From contig CAZVJU010000001.1 in assembly GCA_964627195.1 (NCBI GenBank), positions 9,066 to 73,065 of the forward strand: a stretch of 64,000 nt of DNA, read 5' to 3'. The DNA is from an uncultured Gammaproteobacteria bacterium (GTDB taxonomy: Bacteria; Patescibacteriota; Microgenomatia; UBA8517). A program made the position numbers and the translations under genes. Of the stretch, positions 5,366 through 55,831 are shown piece after piece. Position 1 is the first letter of the stretch; each line of letters opens with the position of its first letter. The notes under the pieces were generated by a model. The model saw only the letters and a program-made list of their open reading frames with translations. It was not told where the DNA came from and did not search any database.

Positions 5366-5400
5366 TATTATTACTAATTCTACCTCAAAATCTGAAGAAG

Positions 5401-5525
5401 TTTATAACAGCATTCAAGAAAGCTCCAGGCTTTCAGCCTGGAGATGAATTGAACGCTGTTCGTCATCCTCTTTAGAAGAAACCCCCGAGTCATACTCGGG
5501 AGAGGATGTTATTAACTCTCGGTTT
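5401..5525 (+). repeat. Two-hairpin repeat element, copy 1 (family also at 37161-37276 and 55536-55651)
   Basis: Shares TTTATAACAGCATTCAAGAAA, ATGAATTGAACGCTG and CATCCTC...GAGGATG blocks with the other copies. Its apical stems are CTCCAGGCT/AGCCTGGAG and CCCGAGT/ACTCGGG. It overlaps the last codons and the stop of the NUDIX gene. Confidence 0.85.
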
Positions 5526-5930
5526 AAAGTAGTCAGGAAGTTCTGAAAAGTTTTTTAATTCCTCTTTGGTAAACCACCTTACCTCCTCCTGATCTTCAAG
5601 TGGTTTAGCTTTTCCGGATTTCCACTTACACAAAAATGTTAAACCAACAACATGATGTCCACTAACTCTGGTAAAACCATCGTTCTCAATTAATATTACT
5701 TCATCTTCTATCTCAATTCCTACCTCTTCCATCACCTCTCTTTTTAAAGTACTTTCCAATATTCCCCTTCCTTCTTCCAAATCTACCTTTCCTCCAGGAA
5801 CCGACCAAACTCCTGGTGCTTGCGGATCGTTTACACTTCTTTTCGCCAACAAAATCTTTCCGTCTTTTTCAACAAAAGCGAATACTGCAACGACATGAGT
5901 AGCAATATCTGTTTCTTTGGGTTTATTCAT
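5490..5930 (-). CDS. NUDIX hydrolase
   Basis: Nudix box GGKVDLEEGRGILESTLKREVMEEVGI (GX5EX7REUXEEXGU). Confidence 0.85.
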   Translation of the reverse strand: MNKPKETDIATHVVAVFAFVEKDGKILLAKRSVNDPQAPGVWSVPGGKVDLEEGRGILESTLKREVMEEVGIEIEDEVILIENDGFTRVSGHHVVGLTFLCKWKSGKAKPLEDQEEVRWFTKEELKNFSELPDYFKPRVNNILSRV

Positions 5931-21767: not shown

Positions 21768-21828
21768 TTCACACCAGGTGTGTGATCCAAATTTATATAT
21801 TTGAAAAAGAATCACACACCCGGTGTGG
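21768..21828 (+). repeat. CACACCSGGTGTG nested-palindrome element, copy A
   Basis: TTCACACCAGGTGTGTGATCCAAATTTATAT...GAATCACACACCCGGTGTGG. It is nearly identical to the reverse complement of 30120-30182. Confidence 0.85.
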
Positions 21829-27469: not shown

Positions 27470-27994
27470 TTACCTCGACACTTGAATAACTTCACTAAGT
27501 TCGTCTGAACACGCGGCTATAGTTACTATTCCATTATTAACGTGAACAGTATATTCCGTATGATCGGTTGTAACTCCGCCTGGATCGGTAGGCAAACTTC
27601 CCAAATATGGGGAATCTGGCGAGGTTGCATTAACAAGTCTTGTTTCTAAATCAGCGCAGTCACCGGTTGCAGCGACTCCACAACCCGCAACAGCATTGCA
27701 TCCTGTAGTGATTCCTGTATTTACTATTTCTTTTACAGTATCATCGTCTACTAGGTCGCAAGATGCCAAAAGGCCATCCTCGTCAACAAGACATTCATGA
27801 ACTGCGGTTAATATTTGATTAACATCATTCCACCGCCTTGCGTTTCTGGTCTCAGCCAATCTTTGTGCAGGATTTAGCGCAGCAAAAACTACAACCAGAA
27901 GTACAGATAAAATTGCAACAACAAGTAAGATTTCAATTAGGGTAAATCCTCGCTTTAGGGTAAGTGTGGATTTATTTAATTTGAGCAGGTTCAA
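27470..27994 (-). CDS. Type IV pilin (candidate major pilin)
   Basis: Prepilin motif KRG|FTLIEILLVVAILSVLLVV. It uses a TTG start with GGAGGTGA 8 nt upstream. The C-terminal region is rich in paired Cys. Confidence 0.85.
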   Translation of the reverse strand: MNLLKLNKSTLTLKRGFTLIEILLVVAILSVLLVVVFAALNPAQRLAETRNARRWNDVNQILTAVHECLVDEDGLLASCDLVDDDTVKEIVNTGITTGCNAVAGCGVAATGDCADLETRLVNATSPDSPYLGSLPTDPGGVTTDHTEYTVHVNNGIVTIAACSDELSEVIQVSR

Positions 27995-29614: not shown

Positions 29615-30124
29615 TCAATTTGACCTTAACTCCGCAGTAGCTTGAAACGTCTCGTTTTTTTGGAATTCTTTTCTTTGGGCAACACTCTCTATTGTTATAG
29701 CAAAACCGATGTTTAAAGACGCAGTTCCGCTTGATAGATTAGTAAAGTTTAAACTAGTAACAGACACTTGATTGCTGGTTATCGGACAGGGAGAAGTTGA
29801 CGGACAAGATCCTCCAGAACCGTAGCCAATTCTTAATCTGCCACCAGATAGATCAATTACAGTCGGATTCCTACTTGAATCAGTCATTTGAAGTGAAATC
29901 GAAGTCGGATTGACCGGTAGATTCAAGTCCTGTGCATTTCTTATCTCATACATAATTCTTTTACCAGCTAAACGGACATTCTGATTCACTTCCTGATGAG
30001 TGTAGGATTTTACCCGGCCGTAAGTAACATCCCACATAAAAAGAATTGCACCGGTCAAAAAGATTGCCAAAATAGCAACATAAAGTATCATTTCAACCAA
30101 AGTAAAGCCTGAACATACAGACAC
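29615..30124 (-). CDS. Type IV pseudopilin
   Basis: SG|FTLVEMILYVAILAIF. I prefer the GTG at 30124, which gives the leader MSVCSG. The track ATG at 30226 would translate through repeat copy C. Confidence 0.7.
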   Translation of the reverse strand: MSVCSGFTLVEMILYVAILAIFLTGAILFMWDVTYGRVKSYTHQEVNQNVRLAGKRIMYEIRNAQDLNLPVNPTSISLQMTDSSRNPTVIDLSGGRLRIGYGSGGSCPSTSPCPITSNQVSVTSLNFTNLSSGTASLNIGFAITIESVAQRKEFQKNETFQATAELRSN

Positions 30125-30182
30125 ACCGGGTGTGTGATTCCTCTTTGTACCATATAAATTTGGATCACACACCCGGTGTGAA
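30120..30182 (-). repeat. CACACCSGGTGTG nested-palindrome element, copy C
   Basis: The reverse complement, TTCACACCGGGTGTGTGATCCAAATTTATAT..GAATCACACACCCGGTGTG, matches copy A arm for arm. Confidence 0.85.
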
Positions 30183-30295: not shown

Positions 30296-31948
30296 TTAAG
30301 GCAAAGCTATATTAGTGGACGTACCCGTAAAACCTTCGTATTGCTCAAATCCGACTTTGAATTCGCAATTTACATTTTTCTTATCACACTTTGGATAAGG
30401 AAGAGTAACGGTTTCTCCATTCGGATCTGGTGGAAATAATAATCCATCAAGATTATATTTTCCATCAAATGGAACTGGCAGATAACACTTCTCTTGTCCT
30501 GGACAAAGATTTCCGGTTGTATGCCTATTATCCAAACTAAGGTGTACATGAGAGGTGCTTCTTGTACCCAATATCTTACCTCGCAACACTCTGTCTCCTA
30601 CTTCAACATTCCAAGTGGCAAAATGGCAAACATTCAAGTTTAATCCGTTATCCAAAGTAATACGCAGTCCTACACATCCCCCTTCTAGTTTTCCTCTAAA
30701 GCTTACATTTCCATCACCAGGCGCCAAAATCTGCGTGTCACTCTGCAGGTTCGGCACCATATCCAAACCAAACAGCTGATTCCTGCAATGATCAGGTCCT
30801 ATACCAACATGGCAACCTGTACTAGTTTGATCTCGATTATTAAAATAGCCACTTGTAACAGTCCATGCAACTCCGTTATTAAATGGCGACAATAAAGAAA
30901 AATCGCTCTCAGGCGGACCATGCTGGTTAGAAAGATTGACCTGGCCAATTTTATGTACATTGTTCTCTGTGAACCAAAGATTGCCATCTGATCCCAATAC
31001 TATGAAAGTAGGATTACTCTCAGCTGTAGGGACTGCAAATTCGGTAACTTTTCCTTTAGTATCAATTTTACTGACTTTATTCGCATTAGGATCTTGCTCG
31101 GTAAACCAAAGGTTTCCATCAGCGTCTTTGGTAATGCCATATGGGTAACTGTTGCTAGTTGGTATTGGAAACTCTGTAATATCACCATTCAAAGTAATCT
31201 GTCCTATTTTATTAACACCTGGATCTGTAAACCAAAGACTGCTACCGTATCCTGTTGTAATAATAAGAGGTGTACTATTTTCTATAGTGACTGGAAATTC
31301 TGTAATATCCCCACTAATTGTGATCCGACCGATCTTATTATTATTCAATTCCGTGAACCACAAATTAGTATCCGAACCTAACGTTATGCTGAACGGATAA
31401 CTAATGCTACTTGGGAGTGAAAACTCAGTGATGCTACCGCTTGGGGTAATACGTCCTATCTTGCCTGAACCGGATTCTGTAAACCAAAGATTACTGTCTG
31501 AACCAGCCGTAATTGTCATCGGTTCACTATTAGGAGTAGGGATTGAGAACTCAGAAATCACACCATTTGGAGTGATTTTTCCTATCTTATTTGCATACGT
31601 CTCTGTAAACCAAAGATTATCGTCTGGTCCTAATGTAATACCAAAAGGGCCACTATCATTAGTAGGTATTGGAAACTCTGTAACATCACCATTTGGAGTT
31701 ATACGTCCTATCTTATTTGAATTATGACCCTGCTCTGTAAACCATAAATTACCATCTGGTCCTGATGTAATACCCACCGGACTAGCCTCAAAAGTAGGAA
31801 TAGAAAACTCTATAACTGTTATTTTTTCTTTTGCACTTATACGAACAAAGAAGATTGCCAATGATGCAATGATCGTCGCAGCAATACCAAATACAACCGA
31901 TATAAGTATATATTTTGATTTAAAAACATCTTTCTTAATTTTTTTCAT
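30296..31948 (-). CDS. Membrane-anchored 7-blade Vgb (streptogramin lyase)-like beta-propeller fused to an M23/LytM-like peptidase domain
   Basis: N-terminal TM, then seven ~42-aa repeats (GITxGxDGNLWFTExxxNKIGRITxxGxITEFPIP). The C-terminus reads ILAPGDGNVSF...VCHFATWNVEVGDRVLRGKILGTRSTSHVHLSLD (M23 HxH half). The first M23 motif (HxxxD) is divergent. Confidence 0.65.
   Translation of the reverse strand: MKKIKKDVFKSKYILISVVFGIAATIIASLAIFFVRISAKEKITVIEFSIPTFEASPVGITSGPDGNLWFTEQGHNSNKIGRITPNGDVTEFPIPTNDSGPFGITLGPDDNLWFTETYANKIGKITPNGVISEFSIPTPNSEPMTITAGSDSNLWFTESGSGKIGRITPSGSITEFSLPSSISYPFSITLGSDTNLWFTELNNNKIGRITISGDITEFPVTIENSTPLIITTGYGSSLWFTDPGVNKIGQITLNGDITEFPIPTSNSYPYGITKDADGNLWFTEQDPNANKVSKIDTKGKVTEFAVPTAESNPTFIVLGSDGNLWFTENNVHKIGQVNLSNQHGPPESDFSLLSPFNNGVAWTVTSGYFNNRDQTSTGCHVGIGPDHCRNQLFGLDMVPNLQSDTQILAPGDGNVSFRGKLEGGCVGLRITLDNGLNLNVCHFATWNVEVGDRVLRGKILGTRSTSHVHLSLDNRHTTGNLCPGQEKCYLPVPFDGKYNLDGLLFPPDPNGETVTLPYPKCDKKNVNCEFKVGFEQYEGFTGTSTNIALP
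30913..31783 (-). repeat. Coding tandem repeats (7 x ~126 nt) encoding the propeller blades
   Basis: The periodicity is visible in both the protein and the DNA. It also generates the antisense shadow ORFs in the track. Confidence 0.8.
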
Positions 31949-33831: not shown

Positions 33832-34299
33832 TTAATTAATCTCGATTCCACCTACTTCATTTAATCGAACTAATGTTGTTCCCGAATCGTTAGTTAGTGT
33901 GACAGTTAACGGAAGCGCGCCTGACGGCTCTCCTCTTTTCCCTGTAATTCCGGAAAATGTTACTTCAGAAAGTCCTGATACATTTACTCCCGGCAAATTA
34001 TAAATTTCGCTAAAAGTCGGAGAAGAACAGCTTCCGCTAAATAACAAAAGGTTATTCCCACTCATGCAAACTCCCCAGGTAGTATTATTTTTCCCGTCCA
34101 TCGCATAACTTTGGGCTTTGCGAATTGCCCCAACTATTTTGTCGCCTGCAACTTCTAAATTATTACTTGCAAGAAAAGAAACCAGCGAAGTCCCCGAAAG
34201 AAGCGCCAAGATGGAGATAATGGCAACAACTAGTATCAGCTCAATGAGGGTAAATCCCGAGCTCTGAAATATGGAATTTGTTTTTTTCTCATTGGTCAT
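33832..34299 (-). CDS. Type IV pseudopilin (GspH/FimT-like size)
   Basis: SSG|FTLIELILVVAIISILALL. Confidence 0.8.
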   Translation of the reverse strand: MTNEKKTNSIFQSSGFTLIELILVVAIISILALLSGTSLVSFLASNNLEVAGDKIVGAIRKAQSYAMDGKNNTTWGVCMSGNNLLLFSGSCSSPTFSEIYNLPGVNVSGLSEVTFSGITGKRGEPSGALPLTVTLTNDSGTTLVRLNEVGGIEIN

Positions 34300-35430: not shown

Positions 35431-35473
35431 AAAGAAATCACATTTTTAAACTTAAATAAAATGTGATTTCTTT
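35431..35473 (-). promoter_or_regulatory. Perfect 16-bp hairpin between pilB and pilC
   Basis: AAAGAAATCACATTTT (35431-35446) pairs with AAAATGTGATTTCTTT (35458-35473). The right arm overlaps the pilB stop codon. Confidence 0.45.
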
Positions 35474-37283
35474 ATTCTTTGGTAACTCGAATTATTTCCT
35501 CTATTGTGGTTACTCCACTTTTCACCTTATCAACTCCGTCATCAAGCATTGTTTTCATACCTGCCTTTTTAGCAATTTCCAAAAGGATTCCAGCATCCTT
35601 TTTGTCTACTATTGCTTCACGTATCTTACGATCAACACTCAGAACTTCGAAAATACCGACCCGCCCCAAATAGCCAGTATAGTGGCAGGGATCACATCCC
35701 TTACCTTTATATATATGACCTTTTAGCGTATCTTTAAATTTATCAAGAATAGAGTCATTTATTCCTGAAATTAGCCCATTTTCACCTAACTCCCCACCTT
35801 GGATAATTTCTTCAACACCCACCGAAATCCTGCACTTCTGACAAATTTTCCTGACCAATCTTTGGCCTATCACTATATTTACGCAAGATGAGATCAAAAA
35901 CGGCTCAACCCCAAGATCAAGCAACCTAGGAAAGGCGGTTACCGCATCATTTGTGTGAAGAGTTGACAAAAGCAGATGGCCCGTCATGGCAGCATTGACT
36001 GAAATATCAGCAGTTTCCTGGTCCCGAATTTCCCCTACCAATATAATATCAGGATCCTGTCTGACTATTGCCCTTAAACCTTTAGCAAAAGTAAGATCGG
36101 TTTTAGGATTAGCCTGAATTTGATTGACGCCTTCGATTCCATATTCAACCGGATCTTCAATAGTCATTATATTAACCTTTCTTTCATTCAGGATTTTTAA
36201 AATTGCGTAAAGCGTCGTTGTCTTCCCACTTCCGGTCGGACCAGTTACCAGGATCATTCCGTGCGGTTTTTTATAGGCATCTTCCAACACTCTGAGATTG
36301 TCCTCAACCAAACCCAAGTCTTGAAGTGAAAATTGGCGGGATTTTTCCGACAGAAGACGCATGACTACTTTTTCTCCATTTGTAATTGGGACAATTGAAA
36401 CTCGAATATCCAAGTCTTCATCTTGGGTAGAGTAGCTTATTTTTCCATCTTGGGAAGACTGATGTTCATCCGTTCTTAGTTTAGCTAGCACCTTCACTCT
36501 AGTAATTATTTGAGAATGAAGTGTCTCAGGAAGTTTAACAATATCGTGCAAAATTCCATCAATACGGAAACGCACAAGCGACATCTGTTTTAAAGGTTCT
36601 ATATGGACATCTGAAGCTGAATTTTGATATGCATATTGGATGATCAAATCAACAATTTTAACTATCGATGGCTCCGGAATCACGGATCCCTTTACTCTCC
36701 GAAGGCTTTCCTTAATTATCGTGTCAAAAACCTCTTCTACATCTTTAGCATACAAACTCAATCCATTTGTGATATCTCTTTTTGATGAATAATAAGGGAT
36801 AACCTTTACCCCAACCTTTTTCTCTACAAACTGAATAGTCTCTTTGTCTAAAGGATGCTCCATTGCTACATGCAATCCCGCTTTGTCCATTTTGAAGGCA
36901 ATCAGTCTTTGTTTTTTGGCATAGATTTCAGGTAACATTTTGGCAACTTTTTCGTCTATGCCGACTGTCGATAAATTTATGTAAGGGACGGATATAATGT
37001 CAGAAATTACTTTACCTACATTCTCATCGGAAATTAATTCTCTATCAACTAAAATTTGTCCCAGAGGAATTTTTTGGTCTTCTGAGTCCTCGGAAGCCTG
37101 GTCTAATTGTGAAGACGGAATTACTCCAAGCTCCTTAAGTTCGTTATATAGATCTTCATTTTTATAACAGCATTCAAGAAAACCACGGGCTTCAGCCCGT
37201 GGATGAATTGAACGCTGTTCGTCATCCTCTTTTTTAGAGGAAACCCCGCCTTTCAAGGTGGGGAGGATGTCATAAAGGCTCAT
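35472..37283 (-). CDS. pilB: Type IV pilus assembly ATPase PilB (GspE family)
   Basis: Walker A GPTGSGKTT, Asp/His boxes, Walker B ILVGEIRD, a C-terminal CxxC...CxxC cluster and a T2SSE_N domain (LGQILVDRELISDENV). The first 41 codons are encoded by repeat copy 2. Confidence 0.93.
   Translation of the reverse strand: MSLYDILPTLKGGVSSKKEDDEQRSIHPRAEARGFLECCYKNEDLYNELKELGVIPSSQLDQASEDSEDQKIPLGQILVDRELISDENVGKVISDIISVPYINLSTVGIDEKVAKMLPEIYAKKQRLIAFKMDKAGLHVAMEHPLDKETIQFVEKKVGVKVIPYYSSKRDITNGLSLYAKDVEEVFDTIIKESLRRVKGSVIPEPSIVKIVDLIIQYAYQNSASDVHIEPLKQMSLVRFRIDGILHDIVKLPETLHSQIITRVKVLAKLRTDEHQSSQDGKISYSTQDEDLDIRVSIVPITNGEKVVMRLLSEKSRQFSLQDLGLVEDNLRVLEDAYKKPHGMILVTGPTGSGKTTTLYAILKILNERKVNIMTIEDPVEYGIEGVNQIQANPKTDLTFAKGLRAIVRQDPDIILVGEIRDQETADISVNAAMTGHLLLSTLHTNDAVTAFPRLLDLGVEPFLISSCVNIVIGQRLVRKICQKCRISVGVEEIIQGGELGENGLISGINDSILDKFKDTLKGHIYKGKGCDPCHYTGYLGRVGIFEVLSVDRKIREAIVDKKDAGILLEIAKKAGMKTMLDDGVDKVKSGVTTIEEIIRVTKE
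37161..37276 (+). repeat. Two-hairpin repeat element, copy 2 (inside the pilB 5' end)
   Basis: The same conserved blocks as copy 1. Its apical stems are CCACGGGC/GCCCGTGG and CCCCGCCTT/AAGGTGGGG. Confidence 0.85.
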
Positions 37284-52977: not shown

Positions 52978-53892
52978 CTATTGGGTTGCTGCTAATTTTT
53001 TTGAACTGAGAGACATTTCCCATTTGGCAGTACTCTTGTCTACAAAAAGGTTCATCAAATTAGCATAGAAATATATAAACAAGTAAAGTATAGACTGTAA
53101 AGGGTTTTTCACTACAAGAGGAAATGCTTTCGTGACAAGTAATCTGAATGGGATAGAAAAACTCTTGTCTACAAGATTTTCGTTAAAAATCTCTTTTAGT
53201 CGCCTTCTTGAACCTAAGAATCTGACACTTTGACTAAAATGTCCGCGCAGCCTATGGGGGAATTTAAAATAAACAGCAGCTTTTGGCTCATATTGAAATA
53301 AGTATCCATCAGAAAGGCACCTAAGATAAGAGTATGCATCTTCACCGCTGATTGCCGGCCATTTAATTTTTTTTGCGAAATCTTTTGAGAAAACACGGAA
53401 TGCACCATGACACAAATAAATATTATTCCCGTCGTTCATGTTTTCAAAAAGACTTAATTTCACCTCTCTACTGAAAAATAGTGTCTTCTCGAGAAGATTT
53501 CTGGGTCTTAAAGGAATAATTTTCCCACCAACCAAACCGATTTTAGTATTTCTGCTAAAAGGTTCGATAATTCTTTCAATTACCAAGCTATTTTTCGGAA
53601 GCACATCAGCATCGAGAAGAACAAGATAATCCGAACTAAAGTTTTTTAAAATTATATTCTGAGTCAAAGCCTTTCCTAATCTTTTATTATTTACTAATAG
53701 TATTATTGTTCCGTTTTTTAGTGATTTAACTTCTTCCTCAGTTTTATCCGAGCTACAATCTGAAATTACAATTATTTTTTGAATTTTTAAATTTAATTGT
53801 TTCTGTGCTAACAAAGACTTAAGCAAATTTTTAATATTTGCCTCCTCGTTGTAAGCTGGAATTCCGATTGTCACAGTTGGTTTTTTTCTCAT
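52978..53892 (-). CDS. GT2 glycosyltransferase
   Basis: Motifs IGIPAYNEEANI, SDCSSDKT and LLDADV. Confidence 0.8.
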   Translation of the reverse strand: MRKKPTVTIGIPAYNEEANIKNLLKSLLAQKQLNLKIQKIIVISDCSSDKTEEEVKSLKNGTIILLVNNKRLGKALTQNIILKNFSSDYLVLLDADVLPKNSLVIERIIEPFSRNTKIGLVGGKIIPLRPRNLLEKTLFFSREVKLSLFENMNDGNNIYLCHGAFRVFSKDFAKKIKWPAISGEDAYSYLRCLSDGYLFQYEPKAAVYFKFPHRLRGHFSQSVRFLGSRRRLKEIFNENLVDKSFSIPFRLLVTKAFPLVVKNPLQSILYLFIYFYANLMNLFVDKSTAKWEMSLSSKKLAATQ

Positions 53893-54848
53893 GTTTTTTC
53901 CGTTCCTTTTATTGCTAATAACTCTTTATGAAAACCCTTTGGCAAAAGTTTTATATCTCTATCCGGATTAAGATTAAGAAGCTCCAGGTCCCGAATGCGC
54001 TTCGCATTTTTCCTGCCAACACGTTGGTTAAGTAACGTTAGTGTTTTATAAACCAAAAGAGGGACTATTAACTTTTTTAACCCTTTACCATAAAGCCTTT
54101 GAAGAAGACGGTTTCGAACTATTGAGTCTTGCCAATGAACACACAGAGGAGCAGTGGCACTATAAGCGGTAATTCCCCAACCAGCTTCCTCCCAATCGGT
54201 AAGATAAATTATATTTCTTTGTAACAAAATATTACTTGCGTTGATGTCTGCGTGAATAAGTCCTTTGTCGTATGTCCCGATACGGAAAAGCGGTAAAACT
54301 TTCGGAGTAGTCATGAGAATTTTAAATGACGAAAAGGGTGAAAGAAAAACCGATTTCAAAAGCCTCAACGGCAAGTACAAAAGTAAAGCTTTGACTGAGT
54401 AGTCTTTGAGATAAAGATTTATTGAAAAGCGCTGGGTTTTTCCGCTTAATTTCTCGATAAGCTCAAGCACTACCGTAAGAATTTCTGCTTTTTTATTAGA
54501 TTCCTCATCCAAAAGTTTCTTGCCTTTTATGTAGCGGGAAATTAGACAAATAACTTCTCCCTGATTGATGATTTTATCCACTTCCGGGACTAGTAAACGG
54601 TATCCTTTATATTCAAAAAGCGTTTTTTTGGTCAGTTGGGATAGATATTGACTAACTCTGGATTCGGCAAAAAGAGATTTATATGTATAGCTTTTTTTAC
54701 CAACAACTGCTTTCACAAAAAACTTATTTCCTTTTGTATTTGAAACAATTCCATGAAAGCGCCCAAATTCATCCTTCTCAATCGGAGTAATCTCCCGGTA
54801 ACCGTTTTGTCTTACTATATTAGTAATGTTTAAGCCTTTTTTTGTCAT
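53889..54848 (-). CDS. APH/choline-kinase-like small-molecule kinase
   Basis: Catalytic loop IHADINASNIL (HxDxxxxN) and the metal-binding LTDWE. Confidence 0.6.
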   Translation of the reverse strand: MTKKGLNITNIVRQNGYREITPIEKDEFGRFHGIVSNTKGNKFFVKAVVGKKSYTYKSLFAESRVSQYLSQLTKKTLFEYKGYRLLVPEVDKIINQGEVICLISRYIKGKKLLDEESNKKAEILTVVLELIEKLSGKTQRFSINLYLKDYSVKALLLYLPLRLLKSVFLSPFSSFKILMTTPKVLPLFRIGTYDKGLIHADINASNILLQRNIIYLTDWEEAGWGITAYSATAPLCVHWQDSIVRNRLLQRLYGKGLKKLIVPLLVYKTLTLLNQRVGRKNAKRIRDLELLNLNPDRDIKLLPKGFHKELLAIKGTEKT

Positions 54849-55831
54849 AGCTGTGATACTAATTTTTCAAGTCTTTTTAGATAAAATTTTTCTTGCTCGG
54901 CTTTGGTATATTTTTGACTTAGTCTTTGTAAAAGATTAAAGACAACAAAAGATCTCAATAAATCTTGTTCACGCTTATCAAGACGAAACGTACTAACCGT
55001 TTTTTTCCAAAAAAGATTATGGAATCCTTTCTGAGACCAAGCAGAATTTAATGTTTGCGAAAGATCATAATAACAATGACTTACACAGGTGTGGGCAAAG
55101 TCAATTACAAGAGTTTTTTCGCCTGCAACAAGAACATTCCCAACGTTAATATCTCCATGACAAAGGGAGTTAGTTCGAAGCTTCAGCCATTTGGAAAAGT
55201 AACGCATTAGTGCAAAAAACGTACGAGTGAATAAAGGTGCATGGGCAGGATAAAAAAATACATTTTTCAAAAGGAAATATGGCAATGATACAATCTGATA
55301 AGTAGAAGTTCTTGTTATTACTTGAGCGCTTCTCCCAAAGTCAAAATTTTTATTCATAGTTTCCAGCAATTTCAGTACCTTCAAATAAGATTTAATACGG
55401 ACTAGATTTTTTTTCAAGGTAATTATTTGGGCACCGGAAATGTATTCCATAACCAAAGCCTTGCCGTTTGCGCTATCTATAATTTTTAAAGGTTTTGGTA
55501 TAATTACATCTGTATTCCCAATCTTTTTATACTCTTTATGACGTCCTCCCCCGTTCAATGGACGGGGGTTCCCCCTTAAAGAGGACGACAAATCAGCGTT
55601 CAATTCATCCCCGCCATAAATGGCGGGGTTTTCTTGAATGCTGTTATAAAAAAGTGTATGACCAATGTATTCTTTTTCCAATGAAGACTGCTCATTGCCA
55701 ATTTTTATAAATACTTTCTTTCCGCTTTTTTTATCTTTATACACACCTTTATCTGTGGAACTTAACCCGCTGAAAATCTTTTCTAGTAATATGTAGCGAT
55801 TTTGTAATATAGTCATAAGTGTCTTAGGCAA
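54845..55831 (-). CDS. APH/choline-kinase-like kinase carrying a repeat-element insertion
   Basis: Catalytic loop [12 protein letters not shown] and VIDFAH. The residues [33 protein letters not shown] are encoded by repeat copy 3. Confidence 0.6.
55536..55651 (-). repeat. Two-hairpin repeat element, copy 3 (inside a kinase-like ORF)
   Basis: The reverse complement aligns end to end with copies 1 and 2. Its apical stems are CCCCGCCA/TGGCGGGG and CCCCCGT/ACGGGGG, and its basal stem is CGTCCTC/GAGGACG. Confidence 0.85.

Follow-up and report, generated by a model that had tools for sequence, protein, structure and literature searches.

To our knowledge, palindromic selfish DNA that colonizes genes in frame has been described chiefly from Rickettsia, where its mechanism has stayed obscure. 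We describe here a dispersed repeat of 108 nt in a 64,000-nt stretch of contig CAZVJU010000001.1 (positions 9,066 to 73,065; hereafter the window), one copy of which is inserted into the gene of an APH-family small-molecule kinase and adds 36 residues to its product. The closest analogue is the Rickettsia palindromic element (RPE), a short, hairpin-forming dispersed repeat found in frame inside Rickettsia genes (Ogata et al. 2000, as summarised in PMC10969869). Nearly half of RPEs have been reported in open reading frames (ORFs; PMC10969869). Our repeat shares with them its size (about 100-150 bp), its hairpins and its dispersal in a reduced genome. It is present in multiple copies and lies repeatedly in frame and free of stops in unrelated ORFs, where it adds peptides of 30-50 residues at fold-compatible positions; insert-less orthologues exist, and the fold and the active site are kept. 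The phenomenon is thus an RPE-type in-frame palindromic insertion. The element itself is not filed as an RPE because taxon and consensus differ: its hosts are Patescibacteria/Microgenomates rather than Alphaproteobacteria, and it has a two-domain architecture, an invariant flanking TTAT and a GTCAT end. About 10% of its copies lie deep in ORFs and about 25% touch ORFs, as compared to nearly half for RPEs.

Three other groups of small elements are relevant. Insertion sequences of the IS200/IS605 family always join their left end to the 3′ side of a tetra- or pentanucleotide that is specific to the element and is TTAC for IS608. The left cleavage tetranucleotide of IS608 lies 19 nt 5′ of the foot of the left hairpin, cleavage at its right end falls 10 nt 3′ of the right hairpin, and 4-nt guides 5′ of the hairpin feet read both sites, AAAG being the guide for TTAC (PMC5027513, PMC3201880). 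Repetitive extragenic palindromes (REPs) and bacterial interspersed mosaic elements (BIMEs) are moved by REP-associated tyrosine transposases (PMC8266576). They resemble our repeat as high-copy, mostly intergenic palindromic DNA thought to be moved by an HUH Y1 enzyme acting on single-stranded hairpins. REPs, however, are single palindromes of 20-40 nt that have a GTAG-type tetranucleotide on their 5′ side and typically lie outside genes as inverted pairs, whereas our repeat is a 108-nt composite, a fixed pair of two different hairpins that occurs singly and also lies inside ORFs, where it is predicted to be translated. ERIC, BOX and Coxiella QMITE1 are likewise small non-autonomous repeats that at times lie in genes with an open frame, but they have terminal inverted repeats and/or target duplications and their in-gene copies are sporadic (PMC10969869, PMC5896051). 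Here no duplication is detectable, and the in-frame copies obey a consistent rule of orientation and length. REP/BIME and the classical inverted-repeat miniature elements fit less well than the RPE phenomenon and IS200/IS605-derived ends.

A 36-residue insertion in an APH-family kinase

A search of 5.8 billion proteins with the host kinase found, besides the kinase itself, 16 relatives that are 34-42% identical to it. We aligned 15 of these, of 276-309 aa and 35-42% identity, leaving out P0008, a fusion of the kinase and its tandem paralogue. All 15 lack exactly the 36 residues and the rest of the alignment is collinear; at the junction the orthologues read FFY-EQSKKLKTTD where the window kinase reads LFY followed by the 36 residues. 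The clean gap in all 15 demonstrates that the segment is an insertion and not an ancestral loop. The gap boundaries coincide with the ends of the repeat, and a covariance model of the repeat, built from 40 copies, matches the insert with its flanking bases (55535-55652, minus strand) at 121.8 bits (E = 1e-27). The length of the copy is divisible by three and one of its frames is free of stops, which keeps the gene open and lengthens its product by 36 residues.

These results bear out the original prediction, made from the sequence, that a third copy of a repeat forms an in-frame insertion in the N-lobe of a kinase-like protein and that the frame stays open through two GC-rich hairpins, HP1 (55609-55628) and HP2 (55548-55568). 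Its proposed bounds, 55536-55651, fall within a few bases of those given in Table 1; the inserted peptide was drawn about 3 residues too long at its C-terminal side, where K and E belong to the host. It had also contrasted the kinase with the flanking paralogue, which does lack the segment and, being only 18% identical, is a weak comparator. The alignment to orthologues that it proposed is the one described above. The structure prediction it called for, with and without the segment, was run with the segment only, and gives a confident kinase core with a low-confidence loop at the insert.

The host ORF matches Pfam family PF01636 (APH) at 39.1 bits, above the cut-off of 23.2 (E = 9e-10), and contains the Brenner motif HGDxxxxN with a downstream Asp. 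The catalytic residues K43, E54, H225-G-D227-I-N229, N232 and D244 fall in invariant alignment columns and are kept in the window kinase. An AlphaFold2 model built on the orthologue alignment has a kinase fold (pLDDT 83.5, pTM 0.80) with a confident core, and Foldseek groups it with aminoglycoside, amicoumacin, fructosamine and N-acetylhexosamine kinases, the first three being its top matches. In this model the insert sits in the N-lobe, past an alphaC-like helix (residues 48-67) and ahead of a strand at residues 114-120 (beta4). Its pLDDT is 35-56, and residues 84-104 are below 50. The gene shares 8 nt with the hexapeptide acyltransferase gene on its upstream side and 4 nt with the paralogue on its downstream side, an operon-like layout.

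Directly 5′ of the element, the tetranucleotide TTAT lies within the codons for F61 and Y62, which are nearly invariant in the orthologues, and host sequence resumes right after the terminal GTCAT. From this we infer that TTAT at the kinase site is a pre-existing target that was not duplicated.

The protein with its insert has been recorded in GenBank (EKD95499.1, ACD_24C00469G0001), ENA, JGI and SRA sources. An independent ENA assembly carries the same locus at 100% identity, and a 99.5%-identical locus from another sample also has the insert, with two differences in the coding sequence, one synonymous and one inside the insert. The same protein in these records and the identical and near-identical loci show that the insert is not an assembly artefact. 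It is present in all population variants sampled, and 3 of their 5 amino-acid differences fall within it. The closest comparisons available for the host coding sequence are a variant at 2 nt difference and then an orthologue at 42% identity; a pattern scan of metagenomes for close insert-less relatives, that is, for the empty site at nucleotide level, gave 199 matches, none of them confirmed.

Architecture and covariation of the repeat

The consensus of the family is TTAT followed by AACAGCATTCAAGAAAAC - HP1 - GATGAATTGAACGCTGATATGTCATCCTCC TTTAGAGGGAAA - HP2 - GGAGGATGTCAT, a repeat of about 108 nt with two imperfect hairpin domains. In domain A an internal loop (GAAAAC / GATGA in the kinase copy) encloses HP1, a GC-rich cap whose sequence is specific to each copy. 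Domain B has a consensus outer stem (ATG)TCATCCTCC/GGAGGATG(TCAT) around HP2. Invariant blocks of 21 and 16 nt link the kinase copy to others that lie in unrelated contexts.

Among 40 distinct copies, 94.6% of the pair cells are standard-paired, as compared to 35-43% when the partners are slid by 1-3 columns. Nineteen of the 34 pairs changed on both sides (153 cells), and none of 500 shuffles reached the observed values. Compensatory changes occur in 7 of the 8 pairs of HP1, and the outer stem of domain B shows compensatory A-T to G-C changes in 6 of the 40 copies, the kinase copy among them. The folding z-scores of the element are −5 to −8 on either strand. This pattern of sequence change indicates that the hairpin structure of the repeat is under selection. 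Mismatches of the G.U type (18) and the A.C type (15) are about equal in the helices, so neither strand is favored as RNA. At gathering thresholds Rfam 15 gave no match anywhere in the window, and at permissive thresholds the best match to the element reached 21.7 bits against thresholds of 45-55.

The repeat is modular: some copies have domain A only, some a minimal domain B, and some carry extra hairpin modules. Three copies (L002, L024, L043) consist of domain A only and end at an internal ATGTCAT, and the direct repeat ATGTCAT bounds domain B. Extra modules between or within the two domains are seen in L044, L047, L075 (GACAATGC..GCAGTGCCAAGC..), L076, L062 and L054 (4705-4865).

Distribution of the repeat among genomes and genes

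We took a census of the family with a pattern scan of one genome per species. The scan found 82 loci, with several copies per genome; four of these are chance matches. The hosts are nearly all Woesebacteria, Microgenomates, Blackburnbacteria or 'Patescibacteria group' assemblies. In the loci that we fetched (607 kb from 79 sources, many of them Microgenomates assemblies) the covariance model identified 83 true copies. Five copies in one genome form a near-identical subfamily (96-99% identity), which reveals recent amplification in that genome. Viral contigs scanned for the element gave no match, and our search of the literature found no earlier description of the element, its sequence blocks or its peptide. 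Many element-bearing assemblies are labelled 'uncultured Gammaproteobacteria bacterium' (third-party binchicken/SRP co-assemblies; L002, L005, L008, L013, L016 and others). This label is doubtful because all named carriers are Woesebacteria, Microgenomates or Patescibacteria, and it could be a mistake or a mere placeholder.

When ORFs are taken from stop to stop, 62 of the 83 copies lie outside long ORFs, about twelve extend across one end of such an ORF, and eight lie deep in ORFs, with at least 50 open codons on each side. A ninth apparently internal copy (L051) was not counted, as it is probably upstream of the true start. All eight deep copies have the same orientation as in the kinase and all are free of stops. 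Their net lengths are 105, 108 or 138 nt; since only 46 of 81 copies overall are multiples of three, the probability of eight out of eight is about 0.01. This requirement for an open frame and a length divisible by three makes removal of the segment at the RNA level unlikely. Relative to the surrounding genes, 37 copies are sense and 15 antisense. The proteins that carry copies include MurC ligase, a P-type ATPase, D-Tyr-tRNA deacylase, arginyl-tRNA synthetase (ArgRS), a ComM-like ATPase and several polytopic membrane glycosyltransferases; the MurC-like protein, the P-type ATPase and membrane glycosyltransferases are hosts of deep copies. For the D-Tyr-tRNA deacylase, comparison with solved structures matches the host sequence (YEYF, insert, I...) before and behind the insert and shows that it resumes exactly at the insert's end. 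The alignment of MurC to solved structures crosses the insert without a clean gap, and we did not use it as evidence.

With the insert peptides as query, a full HMMER scan picked out 115 proteins among 1.84 billion cluster representatives; an earlier word-indexed profile search with these peptides had returned short ORFs only and missed the long hosts. Many of the 115 are ORFs of 40-100 residues on intergenic copies, and about 25 are proteins of 200-1166 residues with an internal match. Ten of the long carriers were scanned for domains and include Wzy_C, PMT_2, methyltransferase and KH-domain proteins. The first half of the element is read by its hosts in two frames (YNSIQE... or ITAFKK...), set by the length of HP1, and the second half in one frame (DELNADMSSS...). 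The conservation therefore resides in the DNA and not in the peptide. Public gene calls, P0019-P0042 among them, contain many 'proteins' of 33-100 residues that are translated intergenic repeat copies.

Ends of the element and a proposed route of mobilization

The four bases that precede AACAGC (positions −4 to −1) are, among 74 copies, T in 71, T in 73, A in 74 and T in 74. Position −5 is A or T, and the sequence farther upstream has background composition. On the other side, A is mildly favored 3′ of the terminal GTCAT (41/74 at +1 and 37/74 at +2). Matches between the left and right flanks of these copies are as frequent as in shuffled pairings, and no target-site duplication was detected. 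TTAT is best read from these flanks as a pre-existing target kept on the left side only, because conserved host codons form it in the kinase and the deacylase shows the same pattern. The element proper (AACAGC...GTCAT) has no terminal inverted repeat. HP1 lies 17 nt from the left end at TTAT, and the foot of HP2 about 10 nt from the right end. A-A-n-A, the tetranucleotide just 5′ of HP1, could pair with TTAT; at the right end there is no convincing guide assignment.

This layout resembles that of the non-autonomous derivatives of IS200/IS605 (palindrome-associated transposable elements), which insert 3′ of a tetranucleotide present on the left flank only, without target duplication, and with an orientation bias relative to genes. 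As in IS608, the imperfect hairpins are subterminal, with similar spacers (17 nt as compared to 19 on the left, about 10 as compared to 10 on the right), and AAnA may pair with TTAT as AAAG does with TTAC. The differences from IS608 are that the whole element measures only 108 nt, that the conserved arms around HP1 form an extra long stem absent from IS608 ends, and that no equivalent right-end guide is assignable. If genes follow replication, the co-orientation of copies and genes (37:15) goes the way one would expect of insertion into the lagging-strand template.

We suggest that the element is selfish, non-autonomous mobile DNA, whose hairpins would be kept by selection on the DNA needed for mobilization, and whose copies in coding DNA may persist only where frame, length and structural position are harmless. 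The unduplicated 5′ tetranucleotide, the two asymmetric subterminal hairpins and the complementarity of AAnA to TTAT lead us to propose that it is mobilized in trans by a Y1 HUH transposase, most likely in the 'peel-and-paste' manner of IS200/IS605. By this analogy, an IS200/IS605-type mechanism has about an even chance of being right. That the repeat is a selfish mobile hairpin element translated in frame is quite probable, and we consider the explanation as a whole (a selfish non-autonomous element in the kinase, tolerated as a loop and mobilized in an IS200/IS605-like way) likely.

Several observations weigh against this explanation. The window kinase is divergent in its family, with a mean identity of 44% as compared to about 60% among the others. 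A tblastn search of the 640 kb of sampled DNA with approximate IS200 and IS608 TnpA queries found no Y1 transposase, and in the same 640 kb we saw no long element with left and right ends separated by a gene; neither a cognate enzyme nor a full-length parent of the IS200/IS605 kind was found there. Counting TTAT and the frequent 3′ AA as part of the element gives termini with an 8/10 inverted repeat (TTATAACAGC / TTATGACATC). Two window copies lie on the plus strand and one on the minus strand of what is apparently one replichore, which is not what a strictly strand-specific mechanism predicts, though n = 3.

Alternative explanations

The inverted repeat at the termini with their flanks (TTATAACAGC ... 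GATGTCATAA), together with the favored A at +1 and +2 and the negative transposase search, would suit a classical miniature inverted-repeat element, moved by DDE cut-and-paste and having short terminal inverted repeats with a TA or TTA target duplication. Such an element would not be expected to be as asymmetric as ours, in which the 5′ TTAT is near-invariant but the 3′ AA occurs in about half of the copies. The hairpins at its two ends are also unlike each other and are set at unequal distances from the termini. The duplication test gave the level of its shuffled control, and in the kinase and the deacylase TTAT belongs to conserved host codons and is followed by a net insertion of exactly 108 nt; we regard a DDE element as rather unlikely. 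Covariation is very strong in four helices, the folding z-scores are low on either strand, and intergenic copies are found mostly on the upstream side of the next gene and in its orientation (downstream gene sense 37, antisense 14), all of which could speak for a repeat that is primarily a functional structured RNA, be it regulatory, stabilising, processing or excised like an intron. Against this, the eight deep copies are all stop-free multiples of three, which would be needless if the segment were removed from the RNA, and the two mismatch types favor no strand. There is also no Rfam family match, the copies occur in both orientations relative to genes, and the pattern of presence and absence, the invariant flanking TTAT and the genome-specific near-identical subfamilies are traits of mobile DNA. 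A functional RNA is accordingly very improbable. We also rejected two kinds of known structured elements: integron attC sites, since RYYYAAC/GTTRRRY does not describe the ends and no copy forms part of a cassette array, and CRISPR or tracrRNA-like and ribozyme motifs, for which there are no arrays and no Rfam support. The want of very close relatives is the only point in favor of the segment being an ancestral loop of the kinase family, lost elsewhere and like the repeat by chance. This is refuted by the covariance match (E = 1e-27) and the invariant 21- and 16-nt blocks shared with unrelated contexts, and by the 15 of 15 orthologues in which the gap boundaries are the element ends.

As to the fate of the gene, the original prediction had left open a tolerated loop or a dead gene. 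The alphaC-beta4 region matters for the regulation of eukaryotic protein kinases, and, P0017 aside, no member of the clade is more divergent than the window protein, as might be so if the insertion had inactivated the gene and left a recent pseudogene with an undecayed frame. However, the 328-codon frame is intact with all catalytic residues present, and the operon-style overlaps are kept. Divergence of about 20% from the genome's other copies shows that the kinase copy is not very recent, but it has no frameshift or stop. The insert is fixed in all population variants, with substitutions concentrated in it over the kinase body, and elsewhere the same element lies in frame in essential-type genes (MurC, ArgRS, PilB). 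A dead gene is on these grounds unlikely. The catalytic residues, the intact ORF with its overlapping neighbors, the confident core of the model and the fixation of the insert favor a live kinase gene in which the insert is a tolerated surface loop. The segment would then be translated into a flexible loop between alphaC and beta4 that is tolerated by a kinase that stays functional, and the inserted peptide would have no function of its own. The converse, that the peptide has been co-opted for a new function in the kinase and other hosts, as a binding or localisation tag, finds some encouragement in the conserved DELNADMSSS core and in the in-ORF orientation bias (8/8 sense), which is seen even though both orientations are stop-free about equally often (0.69 as compared to 0.53 open frames per copy). 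The conservation of the peptide, however, follows from the conserved DNA arms, and halves of the element are read in differing frames in different hosts. Model confidence over the insert is low, population variants preferentially change insert residues, and most copies (62/83) lie outside long ORFs. We hold co-option to be very unlikely.

Significance of the repeat family

The family is a second, independent case of in-frame palindromic colonization, here in the candidate phyla radiation. Its clearly readable ends, with an invariant TTAT, no duplication and two distinct hairpins, point to a testable transposition chemistry. The copies in the kinase, MurC, D-Tyr-tRNA deacylase and P-type ATPase are among dozens of natural 'loop insertion experiments' in well-understood folds. 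For annotation, gene callers yield phantom ORFs of 40-70 residues on intergenic copies, and a 36-residue segment recurs in proteins annotated in these ultra-small bacteria although it represents no domain and is not an error. A further, speculative idea, to which we assign a low probability, is that Microgenomates harbor an active single-strand hairpin element of the IS200/IS605 type that has been shaped for translatability (one constitutively open frame, multiple-of-three length, hydrophilic peptide) and could thereby colonize the coding share, about 90%, of these tiny genomes. If so, the element would be a recurrent source of new loops in core proteins (MurC, ArgRS, PilB, P-type ATPases, glycosyltransferases and this kinase), and an independent, mechanistically defined counterpart of the Rickettsia palindromic elements.

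Other copies and features of the window

The covariance model finds the repeat in exactly three places in the 64 kb (121.8, 120.6 and 98.8 bits; E = 1e-27 to 4e-22), and all other matches are reverse-strand echoes or noise. The coordinates of the copies and of the features discussed above are listed in Table 1.

Table 1. Repeat copies, their parts and the genes that contain or adjoin them (positions in the window)
Feature	Position	Strand	Description
Net insertion (repeat copy 3)	55538..55645	-	108 nt = 36 codons, N63-H98; element read in sense
Domain A, long imperfect hairpin	55591..55645	-	Conserved arms AACAGCATTCAA / TTGAACGCTGAT; invariant A.C mismatch
Domain B	55538..55589	-	Outer stem GTCGTCCTC / GAGGACGTC around variable GC-rich HP2 (55548-55568); end GTCAT
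TTAT directly 5′ of the element	55646..55649	-	Within host codons F61-Y62 (TTT TAT)
Host gene, APH-family (aminoglycoside/choline-kinase-like) small-molecule kinase	54845..55831	-	328 aa, TTG start
Tandem distant paralogue without insert	53889..54848	-	18% identity to the host kinase
Repeat copy 2	37166..37273 (model match 37159-37276)	+	108 nt, inside pilB (35472..37283, -)
Repeat copy 1	5406..5512 (model match 5399-5515)	+	107 nt, 3′ end of NUDIX gene (5490..5930, -)

Copy 2 follows codon 3-4 of pilB, which encodes a PilB/GspE-type ATPase, and is read there in antisense, adding 36 residues. It had been proposed that the element read in the opposite direction gives a different peptide in pilB, and this is what we find, the copy being on the other strand from the gene. 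There is no other in-frame ATG nearby, so PilB presumably carries the peptide. Copy 1, whose length is no multiple of three, supplies the last ~7 codons and the stop of the NUDIX hydrolase gene. The tail of the protein reads ...VNNILSRV* with the copy and would read ...VNKLLQILR* without the element.

The pair of APH-like paralogues is conserved elsewhere. In P0008, a protein of 568 aa from another organism, the equivalents of the host kinase and of its tandem paralogue are fused in one polypeptide, which suggests that the two work together.

The whole window appears to lie on one replichore with a strong gene-strand bias: the minus strand holds 45 of the 49 ORFs of at least 150 aa, and the GC skew is negative in 15 of 16 four-kb bins and zero in one. 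Near pilB, 44-nt direct repeats at 27906-27949, 30066-30109 and 34214-34257 have a reverse complement that encodes GFTLIEILLVVAIL, the N-terminal helix conserved in type IV pilins, and so three pilin-like genes cluster with pilB. In the same pilus gene neighborhood, ORF 30296..31948 (minus strand) contains seven tandem units of 126 nt at 30965-31816, 62-77% identical to the reference copy, and its product is a protein with 42-residue repeats. A 42-nt inverted repeat links 21768-21809 and 30141-30182, which are 86% complementary and 8.3 kb apart.

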